Source of the DNA: a virus
Lineage: Duplodnaviria; Caudoviricetes
Length of the DNA stretch: 47,165 nt
Virus record (IMG/VR): IMGVR_UViG_3300038406_000164
Coordinates: 1-47,165 of that record
Direction: 5' to 3' (one strand)
Shown here: positions 4,027 to 47,165 of the stretch, piece by piece
Layout of the letters: the number at the start of each line of letters is the position of its first letter
How positions within the stretch are numbered: position 1 is the first letter of the stretch
Made by a program: the position numbers and the translations under genes
Notes under the pieces: model-generated
Told to the model about the DNA's origin: nothing
Seen by the model: only the letters and a program-made list of their open reading frames with translations
Database searches by the model: none

Positions 4027-4065
4027 GGCTGGGCGGAGGTGTTGGTATAGTCCCTCCGTCCAGCC
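4027..4065 (+). other. Intergenic hairpin (processing or termination signal?)
   Basis: GGCTGGGCGGAGG-N13-CCTCCGTCCAGCC; no U-tract. Confidence 0.5.
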
Positions 4066-4579: not shown

Positions 4580-5897
4580 TTACAAAGCTGGGTATCGTGT
4601 CGAGTACCTTGGGGAAATATCTGTAAGTCAGATAAAGGTTGGGGTTAGGGCGCGAGAGGATATGGGGAATGAGTCTTCGGCAGATGGGGAATCCCTCAGA
4701 GGGCTGGCTGATAGCATAAAGGAGAAAGGGCAGATACACCCCATTGCAGTTGATGAAAAGATGGGACTGCTAGCTGGGGGACGCAGACTGGCAGCGATCA
4801 AACTGCTCGGATGGTCTACCATTCGGACGGAGAAGTTCCATATCGGGAACGACCCTGACGCCAAGCAAGTAATCGAGGATCATGAGAACTATTGGAGAAA
4901 GCCCCTCCTGTGGAATGAAAAGGCAATGCTCCAAAAGAGGATATTCGACAGGCAAAAGGCCAAGGACCCTAAATGGTCAGAGCGTAAACAAGAAACCTTA
5001 ATGGGCCAGTCGCGTAGTAATATTAACAGAGAACTCAAGCTGGGGGAAATGCTTGAGGTCGCACCTGAGATGGCCAAGGAGTTTCCTGATCAGTCATCAG
5101 CGTGGAAGGCCTACGAGGACTTGGAAGAGCGAACAATGACTATCGCAGCCAAGAAGAATAGACCCGAGGAGGTGGTGAATGCGCCCAAGTGGGCGCATGA
5201 TCACTTCATTGTGGGAGACGCTATTGACGGCATGTCTGGGCGCGAGACAGCCAGCGCTGACTTCGCAGAAGTCGATCCTCCCTACGCAGTGGAGATTGAT
5301 CGTCGGAAGGGAGGTCGAAACATAGACAAGGGGCATATAGGGGACTACAATGAGGTCGATGTTAAGGCTTATCCTCCCATGATGAAGGCTGTGATTGCGC
5401 AAGTACATCGTCTCCTAAAGGAAAATACATTCGCCATATTCTGGCATGGCACACAGTGGCACTGCGATATGCGTTCATGGCTAGAGCAAGCTGGCTTCGC
5501 CGTCAACTCAACTCCAGCCATATGGTACAAGGGGGCGATGGGCCAAACTGCACAACCGGACGTTATGTTAGCCAGCTCATATGAGCCCTTTTTTTTGGCC
5601 AGAAAAGGACAGCCACGTATGCGTAGGCAAGGTCGCAGCAATGTCTTCCATTATAGCCCCCTCGCACCTTCAAAGAAGGTCCATTCGACTGAAAAGCCCT
5701 TGGACCTGATGGTTGACATCTTGGATACGATGTTATTCCCTGGGTGCAACGTACTAGTCCCGTTCCTAGGAAGTGGGGTAACGCTTCGCGCCGCCTACAA
5801 GCTGGGACACACTGGCTTCGGGTTTGACAAATCGGAAGCGCATAAAGAGCGCTTCCTCCAGCGAGTGAGTGAGGAATACACGGAGTTGGTTTCGTGA
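4569..5897 (+). CDS. ParB-like N-terminal domain fused to an N6A/N4C DNA methyltransferase (beta class)
   Basis: ParB motifs SIKEKGQIHPIAV, LLAGGRRLAA and HENYWRK. MTase DPPY precedes HSTEKP and VPFLGSG. Confidence 0.85.
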   Translation: MSSDYKAGYRVEYLGEISVSQIKVGVRAREDMGNESSADGESLRGLADSIKEKGQIHPIAVDEKMGLLAGGRRLAAIKLLGWSTIRTEKFHIGNDPDAKQVIEDHENYWRKPLLWNEKAMLQKRIFDRQKAKDPKWSERKQETLMGQSRSNINRELKLGEMLEVAPEMAKEFPDQSSAWKAYEDLEERTMTIAAKKNRPEEVVNAPKWAHDHFIVGDAIDGMSGRETASADFAEVDPPYAVEIDRRKGGRNIDKGHIGDYNEVDVKAYPPMMKAVIAQVHRLLKENTFAIFWHGTQWHCDMRSWLEQAGFAVNSTPAIWYKGAMGQTAQPDVMLASSYEPFFLARKGQPRMRRQGRSNVFHYSPLAPSKKVHSTEKPLDLMVDILDTMLFPGCNVLVPFLGSGVTLRAAYKLGHTGFGFDKSEAHKERFLQRVSEEYTELVS

Positions 5898-7522
5898 CTA
5901 GTCCATACGAGGAAGGTGATCCTGACAGCAAGCTACTGGTATTGGGCCAGGCTCCGGCTCGTAACGAGATGCGCATGAAGCGTCCCCTCGTCGGTCCTGC
6001 AGGCGACGTGTTCAAGGACTGTCTGCATTCTGCAGGCATCGCTCGTGGCGAATGCTACATACTGAACGTGTGGGAAAGTCCAGTCGTTGAGAAGTCCAGA
6101 GCTTTGTATAGCACTGAGGGAGGGCCTGCCTTATGGACTCCAAAGGGATTTACCGAGTATGGATTGGAGATGGCTGCGCCAACGTTACAGAGGGTAACAA
6201 GCAGTGGTGCGAACTGTATATTGGCGCTTGGTCAGCAAGCACTAGAACTATGTACTGGCAAAGCGGCGGGTATCATGAAGTGGCGCGGGTCGATATTGAA
6301 AGGGGTGGAGCGGATTGGAGAGCGCAAGACGGTAGCTACAATTCATCCAGCGGCAACGATATATGGCACGTATATGTGGCGCTATCTGATCATATATGAC
6401 ATGCAGCGTGCCTTGGCAGAGTCTAAAAGCCATGAACTTGATTTGCCCGTAAGGGATATAGTCATTGAGCCAACTATGGCAGAAGTCAAGAGTTGGTTCA
6501 AGGGATGTATGCACGCCAAGGAAGTCGCTACTGACATCGAGGTTATCAACCATGAAGTGTCGTGCTTCTCTCTAGCCCTTACCCCCAACGATGGAATTTG
6601 TATCCCCCTGACATGCGAAACTGGACACTACTGGACTGAAGACGAGGAGATCGAGATATGGAATATGTATGCTTACTTGATGGACAATCCAACAATCGCT
6701 AAAGTCAACCAGAACCTTATCGGCTTCGACTCCGTATTCCTACGCAGGAAGAACAACATTCGCATCAGGGGATTTCTCGGCGATACGCAGGTGGCGCAGC
6801 GCCTTCTCTATCCCGAGTTCAATCGCGGTCTGGCCTTCATTGCATCCATCCTAACACGTGAGCCATACTGGAAGGATGACGGGAAGATGTGGAAGAATGA
6901 GGGCGGCGATTTCCCGACGTTCTGGCGATACAACGGAAAGGACGCATGTGTGGCGCTGGAGTGTTGGCACAGACAATCTGAGGAATTGACCCAGCGTGAC
7001 ATGTGGGATACCTACAATGACCGGGCAAGCATATACGAGACGCTCCTATTCATGACCATGGACGGTGTGGCTGTTAACCAGGAGGCCCTTGATGAAACTA
7101 AGGTGGAGATCGAGCGCCAGATTGGTGAAAAGATGCGGGAGCTTGAGGGGGCAGCTGACTACATGTTTAATCCTATATCTCCTATGCAATGCGCCAAATA
7201 CTTTTATGGTCACAAGGGCTTGGTGCCATACAAGAATGCATCTGGCGGCGTGACCTCCGATGACAAGGCCATGTCTCGCATATACCGCAAGACCAATATG
7301 CGAGAAGCCAAGCTTGTGCAGGAGATCAGGGGCCTGCGAAAGCTCAAGGGAACGTACCTTGACGTTGTGCCTGATGCGGATGGTAGACTAAGGTGCAGCT
7401 GGGACCCTACAGGCACGTGGACCGGGCGCCTTTCATCTTCACAGACCATTGATGGAACGGGGATGAACTTCCAAAATGTAGACCCTCGATTCAAGAGGTT
7501 CATTGTGGAGGACTTTCCATGA
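5894..7522 (+). CDS. DNA polymerase A, N-terminal part: family-4-like uracil-DNA glycosylase domain, 3'-5' exonuclease, thumb/palm start
   Basis: UDG motifs GQAP, PLVGPAG, YILNV, TIHPAA. Exo I ATDIE, Exo II NLIGFD, Exo III YNGKD. Contains TGRLSSS...NFQN and ends before motif A. Confidence 0.88.
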   Translation: MTSPYEEGDPDSKLLVLGQAPARNEMRMKRPLVGPAGDVFKDCLHSAGIARGECYILNVWESPVVEKSRALYSTEGGPALWTPKGFTEYGLEMAAPTLQRVTSSGANCILALGQQALELCTGKAAGIMKWRGSILKGVERIGERKTVATIHPAATIYGTYMWRYLIIYDMQRALAESKSHELDLPVRDIVIEPTMAEVKSWFKGCMHAKEVATDIEVINHEVSCFSLALTPNDGICIPLTCETGHYWTEDEEIEIWNMYAYLMDNPTIAKVNQNLIGFDSVFLRRKNNIRIRGFLGDTQVAQRLLYPEFNRGLAFIASILTREPYWKDDGKMWKNEGGDFPTFWRYNGKDACVALECWHRQSEELTQRDMWDTYNDRASIYETLLFMTMDGVAVNQEALDETKVEIERQIGEKMRELEGAADYMFNPISPMQCAKYFYGHKGLVPYKNASGGVTSDDKAMSRIYRKTNMREAKLVQEIRGLRKLKGTYLDVVPDADGRLRCSWDPTGTWTGRLSSSQTIDGTGMNFQNVDPRFKRFIVEDFP

Positions 7523-8834: not shown

Positions 8835-8973
8835 GCGTGAGCTTCTGTTGAAACTAGCAGCCGCAGTTATACAGCTGTCTAATGGATTTACAATCCCTTC
8901 AACCATTGTTGAAATAGAAGCTCTTCAACAAGAGCTTCTCAAGACAGATGAGCGTGATGTTACTGGAGTTTGA
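8821..8973 (+). CDS. Small hypothetical protein
   Basis: MTETERELLLKL; bridges 8834 and the polymerase C-terminal gene. Confidence 0.45.
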   Translation: MTETERELLLKLAAAVIQLSNGFTIPSTIVEIEALQQELLKTDERDVTGV

Positions 8974-9814
8974 CCTCTCCGGGGCTGAGTGGGTCGTCGT
9001 GGCATACCTTAGCGGCGACCCAAACATGCTTCGAGTTGTAGAAGGGGGCCTACAGCCACACGTTGAGACTGGCAAGCTCATAAGCCGGGCGCCTGAGGAG
9101 TTGATCTTACAGGAGCACAGCCTGCTGGGCAGCACCACTGACCCTGACGAAATACTGCAGGTCAGGCGCACTAACATTCCAGACCTACTGGACGGGGATT
9201 ACTTTCTTCCGCGTACCATGACTATCCGGCAGGCTGGGAAGAAGGGAAACCATAGCCTAAATTATGACTCTCGCTATAGGGGCTTTGCCCTCACGAACGA
9301 AATGCCAGAGCCCGACGCCAAGGTAATCGTCAATGCGTACAGGAATGACGCTTATCCAGGGCTAGTGACTTGGCATGAGAGCATCAGACAGGAGCTTCGT
9401 GACAACAACAGAACATTGACCAACTTACTGGGAAACAAAGTCCGACTATTAGATCAATCAGGACCAGACCTGTGGAAAGCGGCTTACAGTTACAAGCCTC
9501 AATCGACAGTTGGTGACATTGTACGGCGTGCTATGGTCCTAATGTACGAGGATAATGACAGCGTAGGTAGGCTTGCGAAGCCAAAAGCCAACGTCCACGA
9601 CTCAATCCTGGTCAACTACCCAGTCGACCCGCTTGATAGGCTATTGGAGTTTGTTAATCGGACGGTAGGATACATGAGTCCTGAGCTTCATTGTAACGGA
9701 AGGACGTTCAAGCTCGGCGTTGATGTGAAGATGGGGCATAACTGGGGGACGATGGAGAAGTTTGATGCTCACCGACATGTTCGAGTGGGAGTACCTCAAA
9801 CCAGTCCTTCTTGA
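8948..9814 (+). CDS. DNA polymerase A, C-terminal catalytic part (motifs A, B, C)
   Basis: Motif A FDLSGAEWVVVAYLSGD, motif B RQAGKKGNHSLNY, PQSTVGD, motif C NVHDSI. Confidence 0.88.
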   Translation: MSVMLLEFDLSGAEWVVVAYLSGDPNMLRVVEGGLQPHVETGKLISRAPEELILQEHSLLGSTTDPDEILQVRRTNIPDLLDGDYFLPRTMTIRQAGKKGNHSLNYDSRYRGFALTNEMPEPDAKVIVNAYRNDAYPGLVTWHESIRQELRDNNRTLTNLLGNKVRLLDQSGPDLWKAAYSYKPQSTVGDIVRRAMVLMYEDNDSVGRLAKPKANVHDSILVNYPVDPLDRLLEFVNRTVGYMSPELHCNGRTFKLGVDVKMGHNWGTMEKFDAHRHVRVGVPQTSPS

Positions 9815-34086: not shown

Positions 34087-34866
34087 ATGAAAAGACTTGC
34101 TATTGCGGCGATAGCCGCAGCACTATGTGTAACCATGCTCCCAGGCGCGGCAGGTGCCGCAGACATCGAGGATGCATTTCCAGATGTGCAGAACGAGCCT
34201 GAGCGCCCGTACATCAGTTGGACGGCCCTGTACGTAGGCGTAGGTGTAGGCTATGGCAATGCCAACCATGACCTTTCGGTCAACGATGAATTTCAGGACG
34301 TGGGATTGGCCAAGATAGGTGGTGAATTCTCTGCTGGGCTTGACGGCTTGAACAGTCAGGGAGTTATTGGGCGCGGCAAGATCGGTGCTGACTACCAGAT
34401 TGGTGGCGGTCGCTTTGTCGTGGGCATCTTTGGCCTGTACGACTTCACGGACATGGATACAGACGGATTCATCAGCTTTGGTCCTGGAACTGGCGGAAGT
34501 TTTCTTCTGGAGAAAGATGATGAGTGGGCTGCCGGTATTCGTGGTGGCATCCTTATCAATCCTGAGACGCTGTTTTATCTGTCGGTAGCATACGCCGAAA
34601 CTGGCTATGACCTGACAGTCAATAACGGTGTGGGAGGGGTTATTCCCGAGCTATCAGGCGGGTTCGATGCCGAAGGCATTGCACCTGGCATTGGCATTGA
34701 GACGCTTATTCTGCGGAACGTGTCGCTCAATATTGACTATACGCACACATTCTACGATACGGAGACGCTTACGGCGTTTCGTGGGATCAACGTCCAAGAC
34801 GATCTGGACGAAGATAAGGTGATGCTTGAGCTTAAGCTGAAGTTGAACCAGGGCCTGTTTCGGTGA
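34087..34866 (+). CDS. Outer-membrane beta-barrel protein, Omp25/RopB-like
   Basis: Signal peptide ending AGA-AD; SWTALYVGVGVGYG, IGADYQ, RGGILINPETLFY, GIGIE; alternating beta strands. Confidence 0.8.
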   Translation: MKRLAIAAIAAALCVTMLPGAAGAADIEDAFPDVQNEPERPYISWTALYVGVGVGYGNANHDLSVNDEFQDVGLAKIGGEFSAGLDGLNSQGVIGRGKIGADYQIGGGRFVVGIFGLYDFTDMDTDGFISFGPGTGGSFLLEKDDEWAAGIRGGILINPETLFYLSVAYAETGYDLTVNNGVGGVIPELSGGFDAEGIAPGIGIETLILRNVSLNIDYTHTFYDTETLTAFRGINVQDDLDEDKVMLELKLKLNQGLFR

Positions 34867-36054: not shown

Positions 36055-36387
36055 CCGAAGGTCATGAGGGCGAAGTCCACAGAAATGTGCGCACCTAATT
36101 CGCTTTAGAAAGTTCCACCTTACCTATGGCTCAACTGCACCGTGCAGCCGGGATGCCACCCCCTTCGTGTGCCCCAAGGGGCACACGTTGCACAGGGGCT
36201 ACATGCTGCAACGCACTATGTAACACATATACTACATGTGCATTGCACTATGTAGCAATATTACTACACATTGCATTGCAATATAGATGTGTTGCATTGC
36301 ACCATGTTGCATATGGGCTACAATGTAGCCCAACCATCACACATTTACGCAACCATTGGTTGGTTTTACGCATAAAGCCTCAACTAA

Positions 36388-36408
36388 ACTGGCCCAAAAT
36401 GGGCCAAT
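36388..36408. promoter_or_regulatory. 21-bp palindrome, copy 4
   Basis: ACTGGCCCA-AAA-TGGGCCAAT. Confidence 0.7.
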
Positions 36409-36542
36409 GTAGTGGTAAATCGGTCAACATACGTGATATTTGTGCATTGTAGGACGCTTGTAGTACTGTATTTCTTAATGCTGCACTGCGGCATGGTACA
36501 TTTATACTACACACACGCTTCGCCATGTGCTGCGCACATGTC

Positions 36543-37834: not shown

Positions 37835-38344
37835 CTACGCACCCGATTCACTATTTTCATTCTCAGCACCATGCCGACTCGCTTCGCTCGTAGGCTCAGC
37901 CACGACATCAATCACGCCTGGCATCTTAGGCATTGGAAGGCCAAGCCTACCCGTGACTTCCCTCAATTTATCCTCAATTTGCGAATCGCTCATCTTGCTA
38001 ATAGCTACATTTACATTCACCTCGGTCTCAGTCTTCTCCGTGAATCCAGCTACTCTGGCAATTTGCACAAGCGACGCGATGTACTTATCCGGTGCACGTT
38101 CCGCAAATGCGCTGATTGCATCAGCGCTTGGCATACACTCAAGCCATCCCGCAAGCAGTTCGATAAAAGGCATTCTATCGTATTGCTTCAGCCGGGCGCG
38201 AACTTCCTCAGCCGAGAAGCCAAGGAATTCAGGCCTTGCGCTATCTCTGTGCGTCACTTCCTTGCCATAAGGTGAGCGTGTTTTGCGTTGGCGCACCGTC
38301 TTCTGTGCAGCTACAGCAGCCACAGCAGGGTCATTCGGGTCCAT
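37835..38344 (-). CDS. Putative terminase small subunit
   Basis: C-terminal EVNVNVAISKMSDSQIEDKL...VIDV is typical of TerS-like proteins. Start uncertain (the ORF extends to 38437). Confidence 0.55.
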   Translation of the reverse strand: MDPNDPAVAAVAAQKTVRQRKTRSPYGKEVTHRDSARPEFLGFSAEEVRARLKQYDRMPFIELLAGWLECMPSADAISAFAERAPDKYIASLVQIARVAGFTEKTETEVNVNVAISKMSDSQIEDKLREVTGRLGLPMPKMPGVIDVVAEPTSEASRHGAENENSESGA

Positions 38345-38924
38345 CTTCTGATTGACGAGATGCGGATCGTTCGCGTCGGACCACTGCGTTGCCCGAGTAC
38401 GGAACCTTCGGCTCTTTCCTGCCATGCGCCAACCCAACTCCCCGCGCGGCCTTGAGGGCCGCGCTCTGTTGCTGTTTCAGAAACTTGTTGTGATCAATTT
38501 GCCTTTGCAATCGTTCCATGGCCATCTCAGCACGCACATTTATGACGCGCGACTGAGTTAGGTTATCATTGGCCACTTCAGCGGCCAAGAATATCCATTG
38601 ATCGATGGCAGTCATCGACGTCATCAAGTACCCATCGGGCCTCTTAATCACGGGAAGACCATACAACTCAACCCATCTCCACAGCGTCACAATCGAACCA
38701 ATGCCCAGATAGTGACAAATGCTCTCACCACCAATCAACAGATTCTGATTTGGATCAATGTATAGGCGTGCTGCATGGCTGGCACCTGGCGTGTCACCTA
38801 CCGAATGCTTTGCATTCGGGACTGTGCCCACATGTGTCGCGCCCCATGGCTTAGATGTGCCACGTAAATCAGGGTGGACTTTGAAGCCATCATGATTACC
38901 CATGGCGGTCCTTTGGACCGCCAC
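38331..38924 (-). CDS. HTH DNA-binding protein
   Basis: GGESICHYLGIGSIVTLWRWVELYGLPV (MerR/excisionase-like HTH). Confidence 0.6.
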   Translation of the reverse strand: MAVQRTAMGNHDGFKVHPDLRGTSKPWGATHVGTVPNAKHSVGDTPGASHAARLYIDPNQNLLIGGESICHYLGIGSIVTLWRWVELYGLPVIKRPDGYLMTSMTAIDQWIFLAAEVANDNLTQSRVINVRAEMAMERLQRQIDHNKFLKQQQSAALKAARGVGLAHGRKEPKVPYSGNAVVRRERSASRQSEDGPE

Positions 38925-39084
38925 GCGTGTTGAGGATCATTTGCTCAATGTACGCCCATTGCTTCTTCACATCATCGCTCAGATCACGCTTCATCTGCTC
39001 GATGTATGCGCATTCGGGCGCAATGCGTTCGGGCGCGGCCTGCGGCCATGAGGTGAAAATATTTTGGGGCCGGACGGGTTTCAT
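38896..39084 (-). CDS. Small hypothetical protein
   Basis: Coupled ORF with an internal AYIEQM duplication. Confidence 0.35.
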   Translation of the reverse strand: MKPVRPQNIFTSWPQAAPERIAPECAYIEQMKRDLSDDVKKQWAYIEQMILNTRGGPKDRHG

Positions 39085-39269
39085 GCACTAAAGGGTACTA
39101 GAAAATGGCGCGGCAAGCAACCCACGGCCCCCAAATGCACAAATGCAAAACCATATATTATCGGACGCTATACGTCCCCGTGTAAAATAACATGAAATAT
39201 GTATCTCCTAATAGCATTATCTTAGTAGGGAACAAATCATGAACAATAAAAAGAGGAAATGTGATTCAT

Positions 39270-39298
39270 TTGCTTTCCCGTGGCGTGTGTCCGATAAT
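39270..39298 (+). promoter_or_regulatory. Sigma70-type promoter for the helicase gene
   Basis: TTGCTT-N17-GATAAT in an AT-rich intergenic region. Confidence 0.5.
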
Positions 39299-39357
39299 AT
39301 ATGGATATGCATTTATACACACCGCCCAAAGCACCCTTAAAAAAATGAGGAAAATCA

Positions 39358-40878
39358 ATGAGTTCGGACGAGCAAACTCCTAATCCTGAAAAAGATGAGA
39401 AAATTGTTAAGATAACCGACTACGGCAATATGGAGGAAATGTTTTCCATAAAAACCCCAGACCACATTATGGGCACGTCAGACGACTCACTAGCAGTGCT
39501 TTTCGCAGATAAATTTCATAAAAACGTGCGATATGTAGGCCAATGGGGCAAGTGGATGGTATGGGAAGGTACTAAATGGGAAATAGATCATATGCTCAGA
39601 GCCTATGAGCAAACACGAGAGTTCATGCGAACTGTTGTTGAGGGCTTACAGAACAAGATATACAAATCCAATCTCAAGGATCTGATTTCTCCTAAATGCA
39701 CAACAACTGAGCGTGCTCGTGGTCGGATGGAGGCTCTCAGAGACTCTCGTGCGAAGGTTAAGCCCCTGTTATCATTTCGCACAATCAACTCTGTGTCAGC
39801 CATGGCGCGAGCAGATAGGCGTATCGCTACAAGCGTGGACACATGGGACAGTAATCCTTATCTATTGAACACGCCTGATGGCACCATTGATCTACGCACT
39901 GGTCATATGCTTAACCATGACCCCCTGGATTACATAACCAGAACTACAATGATTGCGCCTTTGTCACGAAAGCCAAGACGATGGCTCGACTTTCTTAAAA
40001 CTATTATGCATGGCGATGAGGAGATGGTTCGCTATCTACAAAAGATATTTGGCTATTGTCTCGTCGGTGAAACCAAAGAGCACCAAATGTACTTCGCCTA
40101 CGGCACAGGCGCAAACGGCAAAGGCGTCACCCTCAATACAATGCGAAACCTTCTGGGCGATTACGGCGTTGAAGCCAATATTGAGACGTTCATCATAACA
40201 GGATACGAGCGCCATCCAACTGAGCTAGCTGACCTCCGCGGAGCGCGCCTCGTAACATGCGGAGAAACTGACGAGGGCCAACGCTGGGCTGAGGCACGTA
40301 TTAAAACTCTAACGGGCGGTGATCCCGTGAAGGCGCGTTTTATGCGTCAGGACTTCTTCCAATACCAGCCACAATTCAAACTATTTCTGGCTGGCAATCA
40401 CAAGCCGCGCCTGAGTAATGTAGATGAAGCATTGCAGCGACGTTTTAGGCTCATACCCTTTACATACACAGTCCCCCGTGATGAGCGCGACCTTGACCTG
40501 GCAGAGAAAATGAAAGTTGATTGGCCCGGCATCCTTGATTGGGCTATCGAAGGATGCATCATGTGGCAAGCTGAGGGATTGGAGCCACCAGCAGTTGTTG
40601 CGGAAGCTACCAAATCATATCTATCACAGGAAGATGCTATCACCTCATGGTATGGTGACTGCTGCGTTCCAGATGACAAGGCATTCACCTACATCAAAGA
40701 CCTATTTGCATCATGGGCCAAGTGGGCGCAAGACAGCGGTGAGCATCCTGGAACAAAGCGCGTACTCATGGGCCACCTTGAGGAGCGTGGACCACTACTC
40801 AAAATCTTGAAAGGTCGGCGTTCCGAAGGTCTCGGCTTCCACGGAATAGCTCTGGTGGGTCCCGCTGAGTTGAAATGA
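39358..40878 (+). CDS. P4/D5-type SF3 helicase (D5_N plus P-loop); no recognisable primase domain
   Basis: KWMVWEGTKW, LLNTPDGTIDL, Walker A GTGANGKG, IKTLTGGD, GNHKP, RRFRLIPF. Confidence 0.85.
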   Translation: MSSDEQTPNPEKDEKIVKITDYGNMEEMFSIKTPDHIMGTSDDSLAVLFADKFHKNVRYVGQWGKWMVWEGTKWEIDHMLRAYEQTREFMRTVVEGLQNKIYKSNLKDLISPKCTTTERARGRMEALRDSRAKVKPLLSFRTINSVSAMARADRRIATSVDTWDSNPYLLNTPDGTIDLRTGHMLNHDPLDYITRTTMIAPLSRKPRRWLDFLKTIMHGDEEMVRYLQKIFGYCLVGETKEHQMYFAYGTGANGKGVTLNTMRNLLGDYGVEANIETFIITGYERHPTELADLRGARLVTCGETDEGQRWAEARIKTLTGGDPVKARFMRQDFFQYQPQFKLFLAGNHKPRLSNVDEALQRRFRLIPFTYTVPRDERDLDLAEKMKVDWPGILDWAIEGCIMWQAEGLEPPAVVAEATKSYLSQEDAITSWYGDCCVPDDKAFTYIKDLFASWAKWAQDSGEHPGTKRVLMGHLEERGPLLKILKGRRSEGLGFHGIALVGPAELK

Positions 40879-40882
40879 ACGC

Positions 40883-40910
40883 TTGCATCTTACATGCATT
40901 GTGTTATAAT
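40883..40910 (+). promoter_or_regulatory. Sigma70 early promoter
   Basis: TTGCAT-N16-TATAAT with an extended -10 TG. Confidence 0.7.
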
Positions 40911-40957
40911 GCACATTCCGACGCCCCGCGTCGGGCTCGAAACCATAGGGGAAGCAA

Positions 40958-41164
40958 ATGCCACACATCATAGTTACACGTATAACTCACGACATGATCA
41001 GGGCGCGTTCGATTGGCAACTTCCGGGATAACTCAACAAAGTTGCATAATGGCAACATCCAGATATATGTCGATAACGATGTGCTCGACTATATCAATGA
41101 GCAGCGCATCGGCGCCGAAACTGACAATGATGTAGTTCAGCGGATCGTATCCACAAAGCAGTAA
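40958..41164 (+). CDS. Small protein with an RHH-like C-terminus
   Basis: IQIYVDNDVLDYI...ETDNDVVQRIV; RBS GGGGAAGCAAATG. Confidence 0.6.
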   Translation: MPHIIVTRITHDMIRARSIGNFRDNSTKLHNGNIQIYVDNDVLDYINEQRIGAETDNDVVQRIVSTKQ

Positions 41165-41168
41165 CGCA

Positions 41169-41196
41169 TTGGCGTGTGGCTCAGGCCACACGCCAA
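41169..41196. other. Perfect 12-bp intergenic hairpin
   Basis: TTGGCGTGTGGC-TCAG-GCCACACGCCAA. Confidence 0.65.
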
Positions 41197-41212
41197 CACA
41201 AGGGGAAGCGTC

Positions 41213-41443
41213 ATGACTAAAATCCCAAGCATAGACTTTCTGACTGATTGGTATCAGCGCTGGTGCGTTGAACAGGGGCTGCCGTCCATGTCCGCACAGG
41301 AACTCCTCAATGAGGACGGTCTAACTTGGCGCCAGCAGAACATAATCAGCCATTTCCTGGCGCTATGGGATAACCTGGACGCACAACGAGGCGAAGCCGA
41401 GACGGCAGGTTCCGGAACGCCACGTGGCGGCTATGCACCATGA
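41213..41443 (+). CDS. Hypothetical early protein
   Basis: RBS GGGGAAGCGTCATG. Confidence 0.6.
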   Translation: MTKIPSIDFLTDWYQRWCVEQGLPSMSAQELLNEDGLTWRQQNIISHFLALWDNLDAQRGEAETAGSGTPRGGYAP

Positions 41444-41712
41444 GACCTACCATCGAACAACTCCGTGATCCCAAGTTCCACCGCGATCAGTGTCAGTGCA
41501 TGTTCGTCACCCTCGCAACCTGGAAATGGCTTGAGGCCGGTTACGAATTTGACAGTCCTTTTTGGATATCCAAGTTCCCAATTGGTCCCGTCCCTCCTGG
41601 ACACATCGAAATAGCCATGCATGAAGATATGTTCATAGACCTTCGCCGCCGACAGTTCTGTGGCGAAAGCGACAATGATACGATTCGTAGGATCGTATCG
41701 GCATTCATCTGA
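41440..41712 (+). CDS. Small protein with an RHH-like C-terminus (paralog of 40958..41164)
   Basis: IEIAMHEDMFIDL...GESDNDTIRRIVS. Confidence 0.6.
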   Translation: MRPTIEQLRDPKFHRDQCQCMFVTLATWKWLEAGYEFDSPFWISKFPIGPVPPGHIEIAMHEDMFIDLRRRQFCGESDNDTIRRIVSAFI

Positions 41713-41732
41713 TTGGCCCAAAATGGGCCAAT
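41712..41732. promoter_or_regulatory. 21-bp palindrome, copy 5
   Basis: ATTGGCCCA-AAA-TGGGCCAAT. Confidence 0.75.
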
Positions 41733-41764
41733 ATAGTTGTCAATCCAACACGTAGGGGAAGCAA

Positions 41765-41986
41765 ATGACCTCCATCAAAAAAGCCCTAGATGCTGGCATC
41801 ATCGACCTTGATGCCATCGTTCAGGCAACAGAAGCCCAGATGTTTGGCCTGGAAAACCCTGGCTTCTGCATCGCCTGTGGCAATGAGCAAGACGGCTGCG
41901 AGCCTGACGCCCGTGAGTACCGTTGTGATTCTTGTGGCGAACACCAGGTATACGGTGCCGCCGAAATCCTGATACACATTGCATAG
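41765..41986 (+). CDS. Small zinc-ribbon protein
   Basis: GFCIACG..CEPDA..CDSCG; RBS GGGGAAGCAAATG. Confidence 0.7.
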   Translation: MTSIKKALDAGIIDLDAIVQATEAQMFGLENPGFCIACGNEQDGCEPDAREYRCDSCGEHQVYGAAEILIHIA

Positions 41987-41997
41987 GGAGAAAGCAC

Positions 41998-42255
41998 ATG
42001 AAGGTCAAAGAACTGATAGCTCAGCTGTCTGAATACAATGGCGAGTCTGAGGCCCGTATCGCAACTGGTACGTTTGTAGAGAATGACGGTCCCACCTCAT
42101 ACTTCGATGACATGGAATCTTTCCCCGTCCACGAAGTCACGGAGGGTCCATGGTTGGCGACCGAAAAATTCCAGTCGGTAGCCATCTTCTTCGTGGACAC
42201 ATCTTATCGCAGCGACAGCGATACGGCCATAGAACTACGCGACGACGACGTTTAA
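41998..42255 (+). CDS. Acidic hypothetical early protein
   Basis: MKVKELIAQL; RBS GGGAGAAAGCACATG. Confidence 0.65.
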   Translation: MKVKELIAQLSEYNGESEARIATGTFVENDGPTSYFDDMESFPVHEVTEGPWLATEKFQSVAIFFVDTSYRSDSDTAIELRDDDV

Positions 42256-42275
42256 CCAAAGGAAGGAGAACTAGC

Positions 42276-42848
42276 ATGTTGAAAGACCCTAAATGGGAAG
42301 AGACTCCAAAGGAGCCCAAGTACCCACTCCGCCAGCCGTGGATCGACACCATGAAGTCTGGCGAGCACCAGCAGATCAGTGGCAGCTTTGGGCATCCTGG
42401 TCGTGGCTTCTGCGCCATCGGATTAGCACACTGGCTTATTGCTTGTTATGTGCAGCCCGATAACCCTAAAGATTACTACTTGGAAGGGCCACTGGATACC
42501 GACTTATCGAAATTTATAGGTTTTCGCAGTAACAGTGGTTCCTTCCGGCACGAAGTCCCTGGGTTTGGCGGCAGCTTCATGGCAGCCAACGACGCCAGTG
42601 GATGCTCGTTCAAGCAAATGGCAGCCCTTGCCGAGGCGCAACCTGACATTTGCTTCCTGGCGGATAATGAGAAGCTCATCTACAATGACGTCCTCGATGA
42701 ATATCAAGTAATCGTCGATGATGGTCAGGGGCCCTACATACCTCAGACCATGACATATGACGAGAAATGCACACAGGCGGCTAAATACGCGGCTGAGTGC
42801 AATGCACAGATCGATGCCATCGTCGCTGATACGGTAGATGCCATCTAA
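42276..42848 (+). CDS. Hypothetical early protein
   Basis: AAGGAG RBS; WIDTMKSGEHQQ..FCAIG..ANDA motif. Confidence 0.65.
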   Translation: MLKDPKWEETPKEPKYPLRQPWIDTMKSGEHQQISGSFGHPGRGFCAIGLAHWLIACYVQPDNPKDYYLEGPLDTDLSKFIGFRSNSGSFRHEVPGFGGSFMAANDASGCSFKQMAALAEAQPDICFLADNEKLIYNDVLDEYQVIVDDGQGPYIPQTMTYDEKCTQAAKYAAECNAQIDAIVADTVDAI

Positions 42849-42849
42849 T

Positions 42850-42962
42850 TCCGCACGTGCACCCTCGCTAACGTGCGGATAGTCACGCGCCCCGGCGCGT
42901 GACGGGTCCCCGGCCTCCCCCATGCTTCCCCGCACCCGTGGAGGCTGGGGGCCTACATTTTT
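42850..42962 (+). ncRNA. Candidate three-hairpin sRNA with anti-RBS loops
   Basis: Stems at 42850-42879, 42883-42903 and 42905-42953, then a T-run. Loop TGCTTCCCC is antisense to GGGGAAGCA. Confidence 0.55.
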
Positions 42963-42980
42963 AGTACAAGGAGTTGCAGA

Positions 42981-43454
42981 ATGGGATACGGTGGGCTGAC
43001 TGCGTTCTGTGAATTTAAAAACCTAGACAATCCCGAGGATTTAGCGAAGCGCAAAACGCACGAGTGGCGGAAACTGTCGCACGACGACATGGAGCTTGAG
43101 CTTGTCGATCTGTTCACGCGGATCAAGGAACTGCTGGACGAGAGGGCCGCAAAAGACGCCCGCATATCGGAGCTTACCGAAGCGCTGAAACCGTTTGGCG
43201 ATATTTCATGCCCTGCTACTGAGAGAGATTTCTCCGATGACGAACCGATAGTTGTGAAGTTCGGAAGCGATGTGAATTACACCGTCTCGACGTATCGGAC
43301 ATTCGGTGATCTGCGCCGTGCTCGTTTCGCTTTGTGTCAGGCCCCCTCCTCCGACGAGGCCCCGCATCAGCGCGCCGAAGGCGCTTTTCAATCTGGCGCC
43401 GAGTGGAAGCCGCGGATTAAGGAACTGTTGGATGGGCAAGATGCAACATCATGA
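42981..43454 (+). CDS. Hypothetical protein
   Basis: AAGGAG RBS. Confidence 0.6.
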   Translation: MGYGGLTAFCEFKNLDNPEDLAKRKTHEWRKLSHDDMELELVDLFTRIKELLDERAAKDARISELTEALKPFGDISCPATERDFSDDEPIVVKFGSDVNYTVSTYRTFGDLRRARFALCQAPSSDEAPHQRAEGAFQSGAEWKPRIKELLDGQDATS

Positions 43455-43668
43455 CATTGACAACTACGGCTTCTGTCGAAACTGCGGGCGCCTCCTGCCA
43501 TCATCCAGCTGGTGTCAAGGACAAAGGAGTGACCATTCCGTGTGGTACGTTATGCTAGCTCTGGCTGTCTTAATGGTCATTGTCCTGCTGACTGTGAGGC
43601 ACAATCAGCCTTATGAGCCATCAGGCTACGGTGTTGGTGCAAACTCTGAAGGGAGGGTAGTATGGTGA
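43441..43668 (+). CDS. Small Cys-containing membrane protein
   Basis: CRNCG plus a TM helix. Confidence 0.45.
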   Translation: MQHHDIDNYGFCRNCGRLLPSSSWCQGQRSDHSVWYVMLALAVLMVIVLLTVRHNQPYEPSGYGVGANSEGRVVW

Positions 43669-43985
43669 TAGGTAAACTTATATTGGCTGGCCTCGTCGGT
43701 TCAGCCTTATTGGCCACCGAAGTTCGTAGCCAGAAAGGTGATAGCGTCCCTATGTACGATCCCCATGCATACTGTGGGGATGTACGAAAGCCCAGCCAGA
43801 CAGTATATGAGCAATGCATGAATGAGGAGGCGAAAGCCTACATAATTGTCAGGCTGAGGTGGGAAAACATTCCTAAGGTCATTCGTAATCACTGCACCGA
43901 GATGACCTCCTTTGGCCCAGGAACATATTGGGGCCTCCTCGGGTGCATTCAGGCTGAACTAGAAGCACAAAAGGAGCAGATGTAA
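43662..43985 (+). CDS. Secreted/periplasmic Cys-containing protein
   Basis: Signal-peptide-like N-terminus, 4 Cys; GGGAGG RBS. Confidence 0.6.
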   Translation: MVIGKLILAGLVGSALLATEVRSQKGDSVPMYDPHAYCGDVRKPSQTVYEQCMNEEAKAYIIVRLRWENIPKVIRNHCTEMTSFGPGTYWGLLGCIQAELEAQKEQM

Positions 43986-44581
43986 TGAAAAACAGACATA
44001 AAAAAGTTGGGACGACTTCATCAACAGGCCGTTCAAGGGTGGTCAAGTCCGCCCTCGAACGCTACTGGAAGGACATGCCAGTCGTTGAGTCTAAAACGGC
44101 CATCATCTTGGCGGTAAACGAAGCTGACGTTAAGGGCGCGATCCCACGCGATCCCACTTGCTGTGCATTTTCACGCGCCTGCGCCCGGCAGTTCGGCTCA
44201 ACAGCCGTCCTGTTCCTCAAGGAGGTGGCGTACATGGATGTGTTGGACTCTGACAATGTTAGGCGTGTCTATAGGTTCATTGTATCTGCAGCGACGCGCC
44301 GCGCCATTGAGCGGTTCGACAAGGATGGAACAATGCCCATAGGCGTGTCATTTCGCCTAAGGGCCGTGCCCAAGAGCGAGTCGCTGGAATACAATCGCGT
44401 TCTGAACAGGCACAACAAGTACCCGCGTGGCCCAGGAACTAGGAATCGTGTCAAGCCTGGAATCAACTCTCAAGAGCCTTTTGAAGTCAGAAATGGTCAA
44501 GGCCAAGTCCACTTCGTGCATGAGCAGGATAAGCCCAGCGAATATCAAAAGCCTCGCATCGTTAAGAGTGATGTGTCATGA
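43985..44581 (+). CDS. Hypothetical basic protein
   Basis: AAGGAG RBS; TAATG coupling. Confidence 0.65.
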   Translation: MKNRHKKVGTTSSTGRSRVVKSALERYWKDMPVVESKTAIILAVNEADVKGAIPRDPTCCAFSRACARQFGSTAVLFLKEVAYMDVLDSDNVRRVYRFIVSAATRRAIERFDKDGTMPIGVSFRLRAVPKSESLEYNRVLNRHNKYPRGPGTRNRVKPGINSQEPFEVRNGQGQVHFVHEQDKPSEYQKPRIVKSDVS

Positions 44582-44853
44582 CTACTAGGGAACCCGTCTT
44601 TGAATTTACGGTCAGGGTGCGCCTGGGCAAACTATCGCATCAAACGGAACCTGATGATGACAGGTCTACTGAACCTATGACCAGGGGCGCAGTGGCTGAA
44701 GAGCTGAAGGCTCATATCGCAGATGCTGTGGAGGCCTGGGGTGGTCAGTTGTGGCCGGGGCATGTATTGCATTCTAGCAACTTCCATATCGTAACCGTGT
44801 CTAAGGTGTACAAACGAAACGGCGCGCCTCCAGCGGAGCGAGGCGCCCTGTAG
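44578..44853 (+). CDS. Hypothetical protein
   Basis: ATGA coupling. Confidence 0.6.
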   Translation: MTTREPVFEFTVRVRLGKLSHQTEPDDDRSTEPMTRGAVAEELKAHIADAVEAWGGQLWPGHVLHSSNFHIVTVSKVYKRNGAPPAERGAL

Positions 44854-44882
44854 CGCGGTGGGTCCCCGCCCGGGCCGCGCGG

Positions 44883-44924
44883 TGGGGTGCAGTTCTCTTA
44901 CCCTCGATCTGCACCCCATTTTTT
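44883..44924 (+). terminator. Terminator-like hairpin with a large pyrimidine-rich loop
   Basis: TGGGGTGCAG-N16-CTGCACCCCA followed by T6. Confidence 0.65.
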
Positions 44925-44941
44925 AACAAGGATAAAAGCAC

Positions 44942-45193
44942 ATGAAACTGTGGTTACTAAAACAGTTCGAAAGCAACGGCTACGATACGTATGACAGTAT
45001 GGTAGTAGCCGCCGAGACGGAGGATGATGCGCGCCTCATTCATCCATCTATTGGATGGCAAAATAAGACCGGATGGCCCACTGTGTATGACGACTGGGCC
45101 AAAACTCCTGATCAAGTAAAGGTCACGCTGATTGGGGAGGCGGTGGATGGGACAGAACCTGGCGCTATCCTTAGGAGTTTTAATGCTGGCTAA
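44942..45193 (+). CDS. Small phage hypothetical protein
   Basis: GYDTYDSMVVAAETEDDAR...ILRSFNAG; start context AAAGCACATG. Confidence 0.7.
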   Translation: MKLWLLKQFESNGYDTYDSMVVAAETEDDARLIHPSIGWQNKTGWPTVYDDWAKTPDQVKVTLIGEAVDGTEPGAILRSFNAG

Positions 45194-45473
45194 AGTGGCA
45201 TGACCGAGGCAGAGCATAAGGTGACAGGCGGCATCTTACCCATTTCCTAGCTGATTCCATGGTGGGGCAAGGACGTTCGGATCGGTCGCAACTTCATTCC
45301 GTCAAACGCGCCACCCGCCTGCTTAAAATCGTCACCAAGCCGGGCAAAATCGTTGAATTTTGCCGGGCTGGGGCGGCGTAACAAAATTTTTCGGATGGTG
45401 GTGGGCGCGATCCGGCGCGACCGTCACAGGGCAAATTTGGGCGTCGAAAATTTACCATAACCAGGAGGCTACT

Positions 45474-45833
45474 ATGACAATATCGTCAGAGGAAGAGAAA
45501 TACCTAGCTAGCATGGAAGCTCAGATGGATCAGATGATAGCTGAAGCGGCAGACGATCCACTTATGGAATTTGCATATCAGATGGGAAAGGCTACTGTCA
45601 TTCCATTTATCAGACATCTATTGTCAGCTAATGACAAGGAATTCACTAAGGGAGAAACATCAGTTGCTGTGGCGTCAACCCTAAGCTCAATGCTTGAACT
45701 TTACCTGATTTCAGGTAGGCATGAACATGCAAAAAAGGACGCGTTTGACATACTACAGTCAATGATGAATAGGGTGTTTGCAGACGGTACGTATGGAGAC
45801 CCTGGCAAAGTTAGAAAAGGCACCGTTCAGTGA
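45474..45833 (+). CDS. Hypothetical protein
   Basis: AGGAGG RBS before ATG 45474. Confidence 0.65.
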   Translation: MTISSEEEKYLASMEAQMDQMIAEAADDPLMEFAYQMGKATVIPFIRHLLSANDKEFTKGETSVAVASTLSSMLELYLISGRHEHAKKDAFDILQSMMNRVFADGTYGDPGKVRKGTVQ

Positions 45834-46075
45834 ACCTATTTAAATATTATGGTGAGGATACAGGCTACTATCGAGTTTACTACAAGAGAAAGTCCGACAT
45901 AGGTAAGAAAGTACATACATATTGTATCCAGAACGACGGATCATGGGGCAATGATGCATACAAATTCTATAGCTGCTCTAAGGATGGAGAACCTGAGATC
46001 GAGATACGATTCCCTTCAGAGGATAGATTTGATAAACTTATCTATCCAGCTAGCATTGAGAAAGCATCCAAATGA
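45830..46075 (+). CDS. Hypothetical protein
   Basis: GTGA coupling. Confidence 0.55.
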   Translation: MNLFKYYGEDTGYYRVYYKRKSDIGKKVHTYCIQNDGSWGNDAYKFYSCSKDGEPEIEIRFPSEDRFDKLIYPASIEKASK

Positions 46076-46269
46076 ACCTCATACTGGAAGCAAAGCGTCC
46101 TGGCTACGCTGACTGGCAATGCCGGTCAAGGCTGACTGACATCAACTATGAGCTTCGTGACGGAAAGATTAGCCTTGAAAGGGCATTTGAGAAAATAATT
46201 GCCATGCGGGTGGCCTGGATGGGAATTGAGCCGCACACGGAATTTCGCGTAACGACCACCCCTAAATAA
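46072..46269 (+). CDS. Hypothetical protein
   Basis: ATGA coupling. Confidence 0.5.
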   Translation: MNLILEAKRPGYADWQCRSRLTDINYELRDGKISLERAFEKIIAMRVAWMGIEPHTEFRVTTTPK

Positions 46270-46358
46270 AATATGTTGCGCTCTCGTTTTTCCCGTGATA
46301 CAAATTTGGTATGTGCAATCGCACATAATCAAAATAAATTTCAATCACGGGTGAAAAT

Positions 46359-46727
46359 ATGGCTACGGAAGAAGTCGTCGCAAAAACTAAGGAAGGGGCC
46401 GTCGTCACGTTCAATTACGACTTTGGCGCTACTCTCGATGAGATGGTTGATCGCTTCACTTTGGAAATCTGCACTGCACACACCAAGCGCAGCTTGGTGG
46501 TGGCAGCTCAGGGGCACGCTCGCAACCTCATGAGGGCTGGAAAGAGCCCACAGGAGATCAAAGCGGCTATGGATTCGTGGAAGCCCGGCGCGCCACGTGT
46601 CTCCAAGTCGAAGGTCGATCGCCTGAACGAATTGATTGCTCAGATGAGCCCAACCGAGCGCGAGGAGTACATCAGGGAACTGGCTGGCAACCGCCCTGCG
46701 TCGCCGAAGAAGGGTGCCGCTGCATAA
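46359..46727 (+). CDS. Hypothetical protein, possibly nucleic-acid binding
   Basis: 122-aa ORF after a candidate promoter TTGCGC-N17-TACAAA (46276-46304). Confidence 0.65.
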   Translation: MATEEVVAKTKEGAVVTFNYDFGATLDEMVDRFTLEICTAHTKRSLVVAAQGHARNLMRAGKSPQEIKAAMDSWKPGAPRVSKSKVDRLNELIAQMSPTEREEYIRELAGNRPASPKKGAAA

Positions 46728-46730
46728 GTT

Positions 46731-46880
46731 AATGGTGGGCGGCCGGAGGTTAAGGTAGCCACATCTAGTCCGTCCGGGGATTCCGTGTGGACCCACCATT
46801 TAAACTAGCCTCCCAGTTCATGTGCTTTCTGGGACGGCGCGAGGGGTCAGCGTTGGGAGTTCGCTGGCCCCTCTGCATTT
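46731..46880 (+). ncRNA. Candidate structured sRNA with an anti-start-codon loop
   Basis: Closing stem 46731-46800; hairpin 46808-46838 with loop TTCATGTGCTTT; hairpin 46841-46873, then a T-run. Confidence 0.6.
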
Positions 46881-46898
46881 TAGGGGTATGGAAAAACT

Positions 46899-47135
46899 AT
46901 GAGCAGTATAACTGAATATATCAAGATCAGACGCCCAATTGTAGTGGGAATTGACCAATGGATCATTACAAACAGAACTGGCAGCAGGGCCTTCTATTAT
47001 GATCAGGACCTTCAACTGCCTATGAAGGTCTTGGCCCTAATGAATGGCCACATGACCAGATATTTCATGGCTGACTATGATCTGGAAACCAAACAGTATA
47101 CAATCATAAAGCCATCAAGGGAGCAAGACTGGTAA
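46899..47135 (+). CDS. Hypothetical protein
   Basis: ORF TAATG-coupled to the exonuclease gene across the circular junction. Confidence 0.55.
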   Translation: MSSITEYIKIRRPIVVGIDQWIITNRTGSRAFYYDQDLQLPMKVLALMNGHMTRYFMADYDLETKQYTIIKPSREQDW

Positions 47136-47165
47136 TGGCTGAGGACAAGCTAGCAGGGCTGCGCC
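47039..47165. repeat. Direct terminal repeat, copy 2
   Basis: Identical to 1-127. Confidence 0.9.

Follow-up and report, generated by a model that had tools for sequence, protein, structure and literature searches.

The 3' end of a predicted early operon in an uncultured phage carries three predicted hairpins at 42.9 kb, and the loop of the last one is antisense to the ribosome-binding sites (RBS) of three small genes located upstream. On sequence evidence, we consider it rather likely that this 42.9-kb element is an anti-RBS RNA formed at the 3' end of its own operon, on which it would exert delayed feedback. The comparison with related phages indicates that the element probably belongs to a family-wide system of anti-RBS hairpins.

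The window, meaning the whole stretch of DNA analyzed (47,165 nt), is a 47-kb record of a complete circular phage whose termini overlap by 127 nt. Among its gene products are a major head protein, a portal-like protein, a large terminase, a ribonucleotide reductase, a primase, an exonuclease, and a Sak4-like protein; neither an integrase nor a repressor was found in 35 scanned proteins of ~71. The closest GenBank phages share only ~30% capsid identity and there is no close cultured relative. The family itself is large and uncultured, with genomes of 45–48 kb, 460 exonuclease relatives, and capsids that are 55–78% identical. The DNA polymerase is divided over two genes (5894–7522 and 8948–9814), which correspond to the middle and C-terminal parts of phrog_17 and have an endolysin and two small genes between them. 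A plus-strand gene at 34087–34866 specifies 259 aa that begin like a signal peptide and weakly match an outer-membrane beta-barrel (E 0.0022, below the cut-off); its product presumably resembles alphaproteobacterial porins of the Omp25/RopB type, which we take as a hint at the host. Imperfect, non-coding 34-nt repeats between divergent gene blocks (36180–36520) mark a possible origin or genome-end region.

Downstream of the primase gene (39358–40878), small and mostly unannotated plus-strand genes fill the stretch up to the exonuclease, a block that we take as early genes from its position and gene size. The likely start of the transcription unit is a promoter-like site, TTGCAT..TGtTATAAT, at 40883–40911 on the plus strand; the consensus scan does not list this site, and a regular-expression match to such a post-primase site is also present in 8 of 13 relatives. 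The three predicted target genes, all on the plus strand, are 40958 (40958–41164; 68 aa, no family, with an Atlas lead below 0.9 only), 41213 (41213–41443; 76 aa, phrog_9962 of unknown function), and 41765 (41765–41986; 73 aa with CxxC pairs, a widespread viral protein of unknown function). Gene 42276 (42276–42848, plus strand; 190 aa) is the final one ahead of the hairpins. Genes 40958 and 41440 resemble each other over 43 nt at their ends (72%; 41109–41151 and 41657–41699), which suggests paralogous C-termini.

Hairpin element and predicted target starts

The element (42850–42962) begins 2 nt past the stop of gene 42276, and its predicted fold (MFE -69.9 kcal/mol; z -6.96; none of 200 shuffles equally stable) agrees with the three adjoining hairpins proposed in the original prediction. 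Hairpin 1 (42850–42879, plus strand) has the loop region CACCCTCG, with no target found and no own-start excess; hairpin 2 (42882–42903, plus strand) has 9 bp and a 4-nt loop; and hairpin 3 (42904–42954, plus strand) is the seed carrier. The 14-bp stem of hairpin 3 (42905–42918/42940–42953) contains two G-U pairs as described, and the predicted energy of the hairpin is -35.1 kcal/mol on the plus strand vs. -29.9 kcal/mol on the minus strand. The seed ATGCTTCCCC occupies 42922–42931 on the plus strand. The loop word TGCTTCCCC had been correctly positioned at 42923–42931, but only TTCCCC (42926–42931) is predicted to be open, as a hexaloop, and the TGC of the seed is closed in a 3-bp inner helix with a predicted opening cost of 4.5 kcal/mol. 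Similarly, the T-run said to close the element is present as five T (42958–42962, plus strand), but these stand behind a 3-nt gap after the strong stem and form a weak terminator-like tail; a terminator scan at the element returned a 5-bp sub-hairpin only. With regard to release by RNase E, the TAATT preceding hairpin 1 fits RN-WUU save for the first position. Contigs from two other runs (42814–43564 and 42411–42957) are identical to the record, so the element is not an assembly artifact. Judged by its modeled fold, the 42.9-kb element is a real structured element.

A genome-wide count of the shared word, proposed earlier as a check, disclosed four copies of GGGGAAGC: at 40948, 41202, and 41755 on the plus strand, before genes 40958, 41213, and 41765, respectively, and at 42924–42931 on the minus strand, antisense in hairpin 3. 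The RBS word was thus confirmed at all three positions claimed for it. Four or more copies were reached in 9 of 100 shuffles; the copy number alone is unremarkable, and it is the placement that is special. To rank the 70 starts for the loop of hairpin 3, pairing energies were taken net of opening costs. The RBS of gene 40958 carries the target word GGGGAAGCA (40948–40956, plus strand) and ranked 1/70 with a predicted net energy of -8.8 kcal/mol. It is followed by the RBS of gene 41213 with GGGGAAGCGT (41202–41211, plus strand; rank 2/70, net -8.0), where the match described as G-U-tolerant extends up to 10 bp with one G-U, and by the RBS of gene 41765, again with GGGGAAGCA (41755–41763, plus strand; rank 3/70, tied with the late gene 27459 at -6.7). 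The methylase gene 4569 showed a weaker predicted pairing (-5.6). Two minor observations concern these words. The loop edge GTGTTGG of a plus-strand hairpin at 4027–4065 is antisense to CCAACAC, which lies immediately 5' of the GGGGAAGC word in the leaders of 41213 and 41765 (z 1.8, weak). On the opposite strand upstream of the primase, the one-mismatch variant GGGAAAGCAAATG (39279–39267, minus strand) opens a 10-codon frame.

In loop shuffles, one 8-mer common to at least 3 of 71 starts appeared with P 0.006–0.012. An 8-mer in at least three own starts was found for 2 of the 11 intergenic hairpins of the phage (the 42.9- and 46.8-kb elements) vs. 17 of 10,332 cross pairs, a rate computed over 42 genomes or loci. 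The chance of such a match for the element is about 0.2–1% per hairpin and about 2–11% over the 11 hairpins of the genome. The own-genome score of the 42.9-kb loop exceeds those in all 28 other loci. A hairpin at 1396, within an open frame, obtained the same z of 3.6 as the 42.9-kb element and is probably spurious.

Homologues of the 42.9-kb element were searched for by blastn in 50,697 phage records, by exact 21-mer matching in viral contigs, and by word-7 blastn in 300 loci of relatives (best E 0.064), and none were found. Rfam gave no matches at gathering over the window, and the best weak overlap with the element, Pseudomon-1 (E 4.6), was rejected. Near-identical strains had no variants in loop or RBS and were hence uninformative. 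As for the target genes, relatives' loci hold four distinct homologues of 41765 alone (L001, L002, L003, and L019), none of the four preceded by GGGGAAG, and homologues of genes 40958, 41213, and 42276 are absent from the 300 loci. Alignments of a terminase-small-like gene and of gene 46359 were tried as seeds for further loci and proved too divergent.

Loop and start matches across the family

Since the 42.9-kb element has no homologue from which its own covariation could be read, the element class was tested across the family. Loci of relatives were taken around the exonuclease and dereplicated, and 29 of 43 representatives were kept after exclusion of loci with <6.8 kb upstream of the exonuclease and of those with neither anchor gene present; G026, a duplicate of G018, and starts <45 nt from the tested hairpin were also excluded. 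Genes were called with a codon-plus-SD model, which matched the manual reading of the window block except for two minus-strand frames that it missed. The definition of an intergenic hairpin took no account of targets, and loops were scored one by one against the starts of their own and of every other genome. An earlier gene caller, which missed elements and was replaced, had given z > 3 in 8 of 161 hairpins including the window (1.5 expected). Raw energies for duplexes between loops and permissive lists of starts mainly reflected GC content and were dropped.

Among the 159 hairpins in the 28 relatives' loci, 8 reached z > 3, against 1.5 expected, and 5 matched perfectly over at least 11 nt (0.46 expected). 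At z > 3, the controls gave 1 (sense), 3 (reversed), 0 (complemented), and 2 and 3 hairpins (two sets of coding windows); at 11 nt or more, the numbers were 0, 1, 0, 0, and 0 in this order. Whole records of 23 relatives (150 hairpins) yielded z > 3 in 9 (2.1 expected) and matches of at least 11 nt in 7 of 150 (1.0–1.2 expected; controls 0, 0, 1), with some looser controls slightly elevated (13 vs. 6.1 for sense at z > 2, and 5 vs. 2.0 for complement at z > 3); this set shares ten genomes with the loci set, and the two are not independent. In 13 newly fetched, mostly more distant records, z > 3 was obtained for 4 of 59 hairpins, of which one loop is self-complementary and one was already counted; omitting G011 leaves 2 of 52 and no convincing signal. 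When at least three starts are required, a single one of the 241 hairpins of relatives passes (0.4 expected), and at the two-start level 8 of 241 do (2.5 expected; controls 3, 0, 2). Most family hairpins have no own-start match. A T-rich tail closes just 9 of 26 family hairpin clusters, so termination alone does not explain the hairpin class. These sequence comparisons support the conclusion that own-start loop matches exceed the cross-genome expectation and are antisense- and start-specific, far above the controls.

The words differ between lineages and are often rare, such as TAGGTGAC in G004 and ACGCGAGA in G002. G011 has GAAAGGC at 8 starts, and the six copies of GAGGACT in G005 include 4 starts and 1 loop; most of the G011 targets and one G002 target lie in DNA that was fetched after the loop was seen. 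G004 and G005 possess two loops each, with two different words each, and in both genomes a matched start is on the opposite strand, beyond the reach of cis pairing.

A positional test compared the first gene after the post-primase promoter with a downstream own loop (at least 9 bp) in 12 relatives with a primase match. Three of the 12 match, namely L028 over 12 nt, L069 over 10 bp with one G-U, and L071 over 9 nt with another word, and nine fail; cross pairs matched in 2 of 132 cases, each of which joins the sister phages L028 and L069 (permutation p 0.003). The start used for L071 is orthologous to the other ones and was placed by hand after the match had been seen. GGAGGGAC is located at two post-primase starts in L028 and three in L069. 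It is absent at starts in L075 and L030, which have another loop in the orthologous stem; L030 has kept the Sak4 start of L075 and lost one loop pair. Stems in the clade of L028, L069, L075, and L030 display compensatory and G-U-type changes, with 6 of 14 and 2 of 13 pairs altered on both sides; two rows are poorly placed in the first of these two alignments.

Proposed mechanism and alternative explanations

Transcription would proceed from about 40.9 kb through the early operon, and the three hairpins would constitute the stable 3' end of its RNA. Partial termination or nuclease trimming could release a hairpin-protected 3' fragment of ~110 nt, and an intact 3' end is also possible; read-through with processing is plausible in view of the weak tail and of the T-rich ends in 9 of 26 family clusters. 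The open UUCCCC loop would nucleate on GGGGAA, and the duplex would grow to 9–10 bp as the 3-bp inner helix melts, so as to occlude the 30S site at about -11 to -2 of the three genes. Accumulating RNA would then block translation of 40958, 41213, and 41765, and this brake would be delayed because the loop is made 1.2–2.0 kb after the targets. The original prediction had an RNA downstream of its targets that gives delayed feedback; the targets are indeed upstream within the predicted transcription unit, and the feedback is what we infer from this layout. Action in trans appears somewhat more likely than long-range cis pairing, given that sister loops in G004 and G005 match opposite-strand starts.

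The phage would have at least two independent word/loop pairs, the 42.9-kb pair among them. At the family level, the words differ by lineage, and the two loops with two words in each of G004 and G005 fit the two channels suggested earlier. A broader scheme is conceivable and held here only tentatively: a multi-channel RNA address code in which groups of early genes carry private RBS/start words, each read by one 3'-end hairpin loop, with word and loop rewritten together by lineage to give a protein-free staged shut-off. The 42.9-kb element would then be the channel for the first genes of the main early promoter. For phages without a known shut-off protein, such a system, if true, would be an RNA-only timer that turns down early genes and is made from the message's own 3' end. 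The natural word/loop pairs (two in the window, one in G011, two each in G004 and G005, and those of G002, L028/L069, L071, and L050) would then provide a ready specificity matrix, testable by reporter assays without culturing the phage, and possibly orthogonal translation repressors.

The hairpins could instead be ordinary terminator, RNA-stabilizing, or RNase III-type structures; the leaders would then stem from the duplication of a gene-start cassette, and the match of a C-rich loop to a G-rich RBS would be due to chance. This reading seems unlikely to us, but several observations speak for it: the leaders of the target genes stay similar outside the seed (76% over 34 nt for 40937 against 41744), as duplication would give, the shuffle P is about 0.01 per hairpin, the stem is strong and followed by a T-tail, and family hairpins mostly have no target of their own. 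It is opposed by the 0.16% cross-genome rate of the pattern, by the second and much stronger pair in the same genome (z 8.1), by the excess in relatives, which is specific for orientation and starts, and by the T-rich ends in just 9 of 26 clusters. Another possibility, which we regard as improbable, is that the CUUCCCC loop is functional with a main partner shared by the family, be it a host mRNA, the starts of related phages in competition, or a protein that binds C-rich RNA, the three starts being secondary or coincidental. Nine of 29 genomes in fact have CTTCCC in loops (1.2 expected) and five have GCTTCCC (0.3 expected), for the most part lacking own targets. Loops of this kind without an own start match in the sequence covered include L028 7499–7533, L030 7824–7868, L069 8578–8614, L075 8365–8409, L095 8792–8829, and L085 7165–7217. 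Of the 8 relatives with CTTCCC loops, 2 have a GGGAAG start in the sequence covered, the complete record of G001 contains none, and CCCGCA recurs in family loops too. Five of the nine genomes, however, form one close clade, so that the recurrence is partly inheritance; moreover, G002 has a CTTCCCC loop together with one GGGGAAGC start, and in the phage considered here the only starts with the word are three in the upstream operon.

The remaining explanation strikes us as very improbable: the word would act as a site in double-stranded DNA or would signal the start of a gene on the minus strand. A 139-codon frame with an ATG (42923–42504) is open on that strand, but the distance from GGGGA to the ATG is 3 nt vs. 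5–6 in real genes, there is no PHROG match for this frame, and its codon score is 0.3 vs. 16.3 for the overlapped plus-strand gene, a score that the likely real gene 41440 shares (0.3). For a DNA site, which would be free of orientation, sense-orientation loop matches of at least 11 nt should also be in excess; they are not, with 0 of 159 and 0 of 150 in relatives.

Known regulatory RNAs and sister elements

The proposed anti-RBS RNA has its closest counterparts in two groups. OppZ and CarZ of Vibrio cholerae are autoregulatory 3'UTR-derived sRNAs: the RNA originates at the 3' end of an operon and targets a translation start of that operon by pairing, and this suboperonic negative feedback alters kinetics (PMC7398697). 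Defining features of OppZ are RNase E release of a stable RNA and Hfq-dependent repression, demonstrated by compensatory mutation, and RNAs of this type end in an intrinsic terminator. Like these RNAs, the 42.9-kb element is at the 3' end of its target operon by layout (promoter-like site, genes 40958–42848, element) and has predicted complementarity to own-operon starts (9–10 bp, ranks 1–3 of 70). Unlike them, it is phage-encoded, has one private word at three starts, carries its seed in a hairpin loop and not at a single-stranded 5' end, and is accompanied by several word/loop pairs per genome. The c4 antisense RNA of P1/P7 (PMC5320573, PMC12197685) and the CI RNA of P4 (PMC4825925) are processed from a longer phage transcript, and their loops pair with short sites at or near the RBS; between P1 and P7, a few base changes in c4 lead to lineage-private specificity (PMC5320573, PMC12197685). 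Hairpin 3 resembles c4 in its predicted antisense loop and in lineage-private recognition. However, c4 has a three-stem fold closed by its P1 stem with an RNase P cut and acts on an antirepressor operon of a temperate phage, whereas here the hairpins are side by side with no closing stem and the predicted targets are several small genes. The C4 Rfam model had no match at E up to 5 in 38000–47165.

Cuckoo RNAs of alphaproteobacteria comprise 2–4 adjoining hairpins downstream of a small gene, with C-rich loops of anti-SD type (PMC4615179). The 42.9-kb element likewise has three adjoining hairpins behind a gene and a C-rich loop, but the invariant CCUCCUCCC is missing from all three loops, there is no Rfam match, and its loops differ from one another and between lineages. 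Membership in either the C4 or the cuckoo family was therefore rejected (no Rfam match, no closing stem, no CCUCCUCCC). By analogy, the element is, with reasonable though not strong confidence, OppZ/CarZ-like in origin and feedback and c4-like in loop recognition, and a member of neither family. Phage T4 shuts off early mRNAs through a ribosome-binding word with its RegB endoribonuclease (PMC1702504); in contrast to that protein nuclease acting on GGAG, the 42.9-kb element is predicted to read a private word with an RNA loop. We found no report of a multi-target phage system of such kind in the open-licence PMC and bioRxiv literature.

The sister element at 46808–46838 (plus strand) has an open loop antisense, over 12–13 nt, to the starts of 41998 and 44942 (z 7.8–9.2), as well as to Sak4 (2776; 9 nt) and to the start of a minus-strand frame, 37465, with a negative coding score. 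Three hairpins are located here behind gene 46359 (46735–46876, plus strand), with the middle loop predicted to be fully open, and 29 of the 32 genomes that have gene 46359 keep a hairpin cluster in this place. At the orthologous position, z is at most 2 in 21 of 28 and above 3 in 5 vs. 0.39 expected, with a rank test p of 0.24 and a reversed control of 2 vs. 0.22 at z > 3. The 46.8-kb element would be the stronger channel, and the 42.9-kb element the weaker of the two. On the 3' side of the inner region of hairpin 3, 8 nt (42933–42940) are complementary to part of the leader (46348–46355) of gene 46359, a conserved gene without the usual SD; the predicted net pairing is just -3.1 kcal/mol.

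Two adjoining hairpins with a 6-T tail are also present at 44853–44920 (plus strand; z -4.3). Their loop has ACCCTCG in common with hairpin 1 and no own-start excess, a 7-nt match to the RBS of gene 43662 does not exceed background, and homology between the 42.9- and 44.9-kb elements was not significant (P 0.11). A perfect palindrome, TGGCCCA-AAA-TGGGCCA, occurs in five copies (4309, 14529, 21699, 36390, and 41714), mostly directly after stop codons, and is likely an operator or phage promoter element; the copy at 41714 sits in the predicted operon, ahead of gene 41765.
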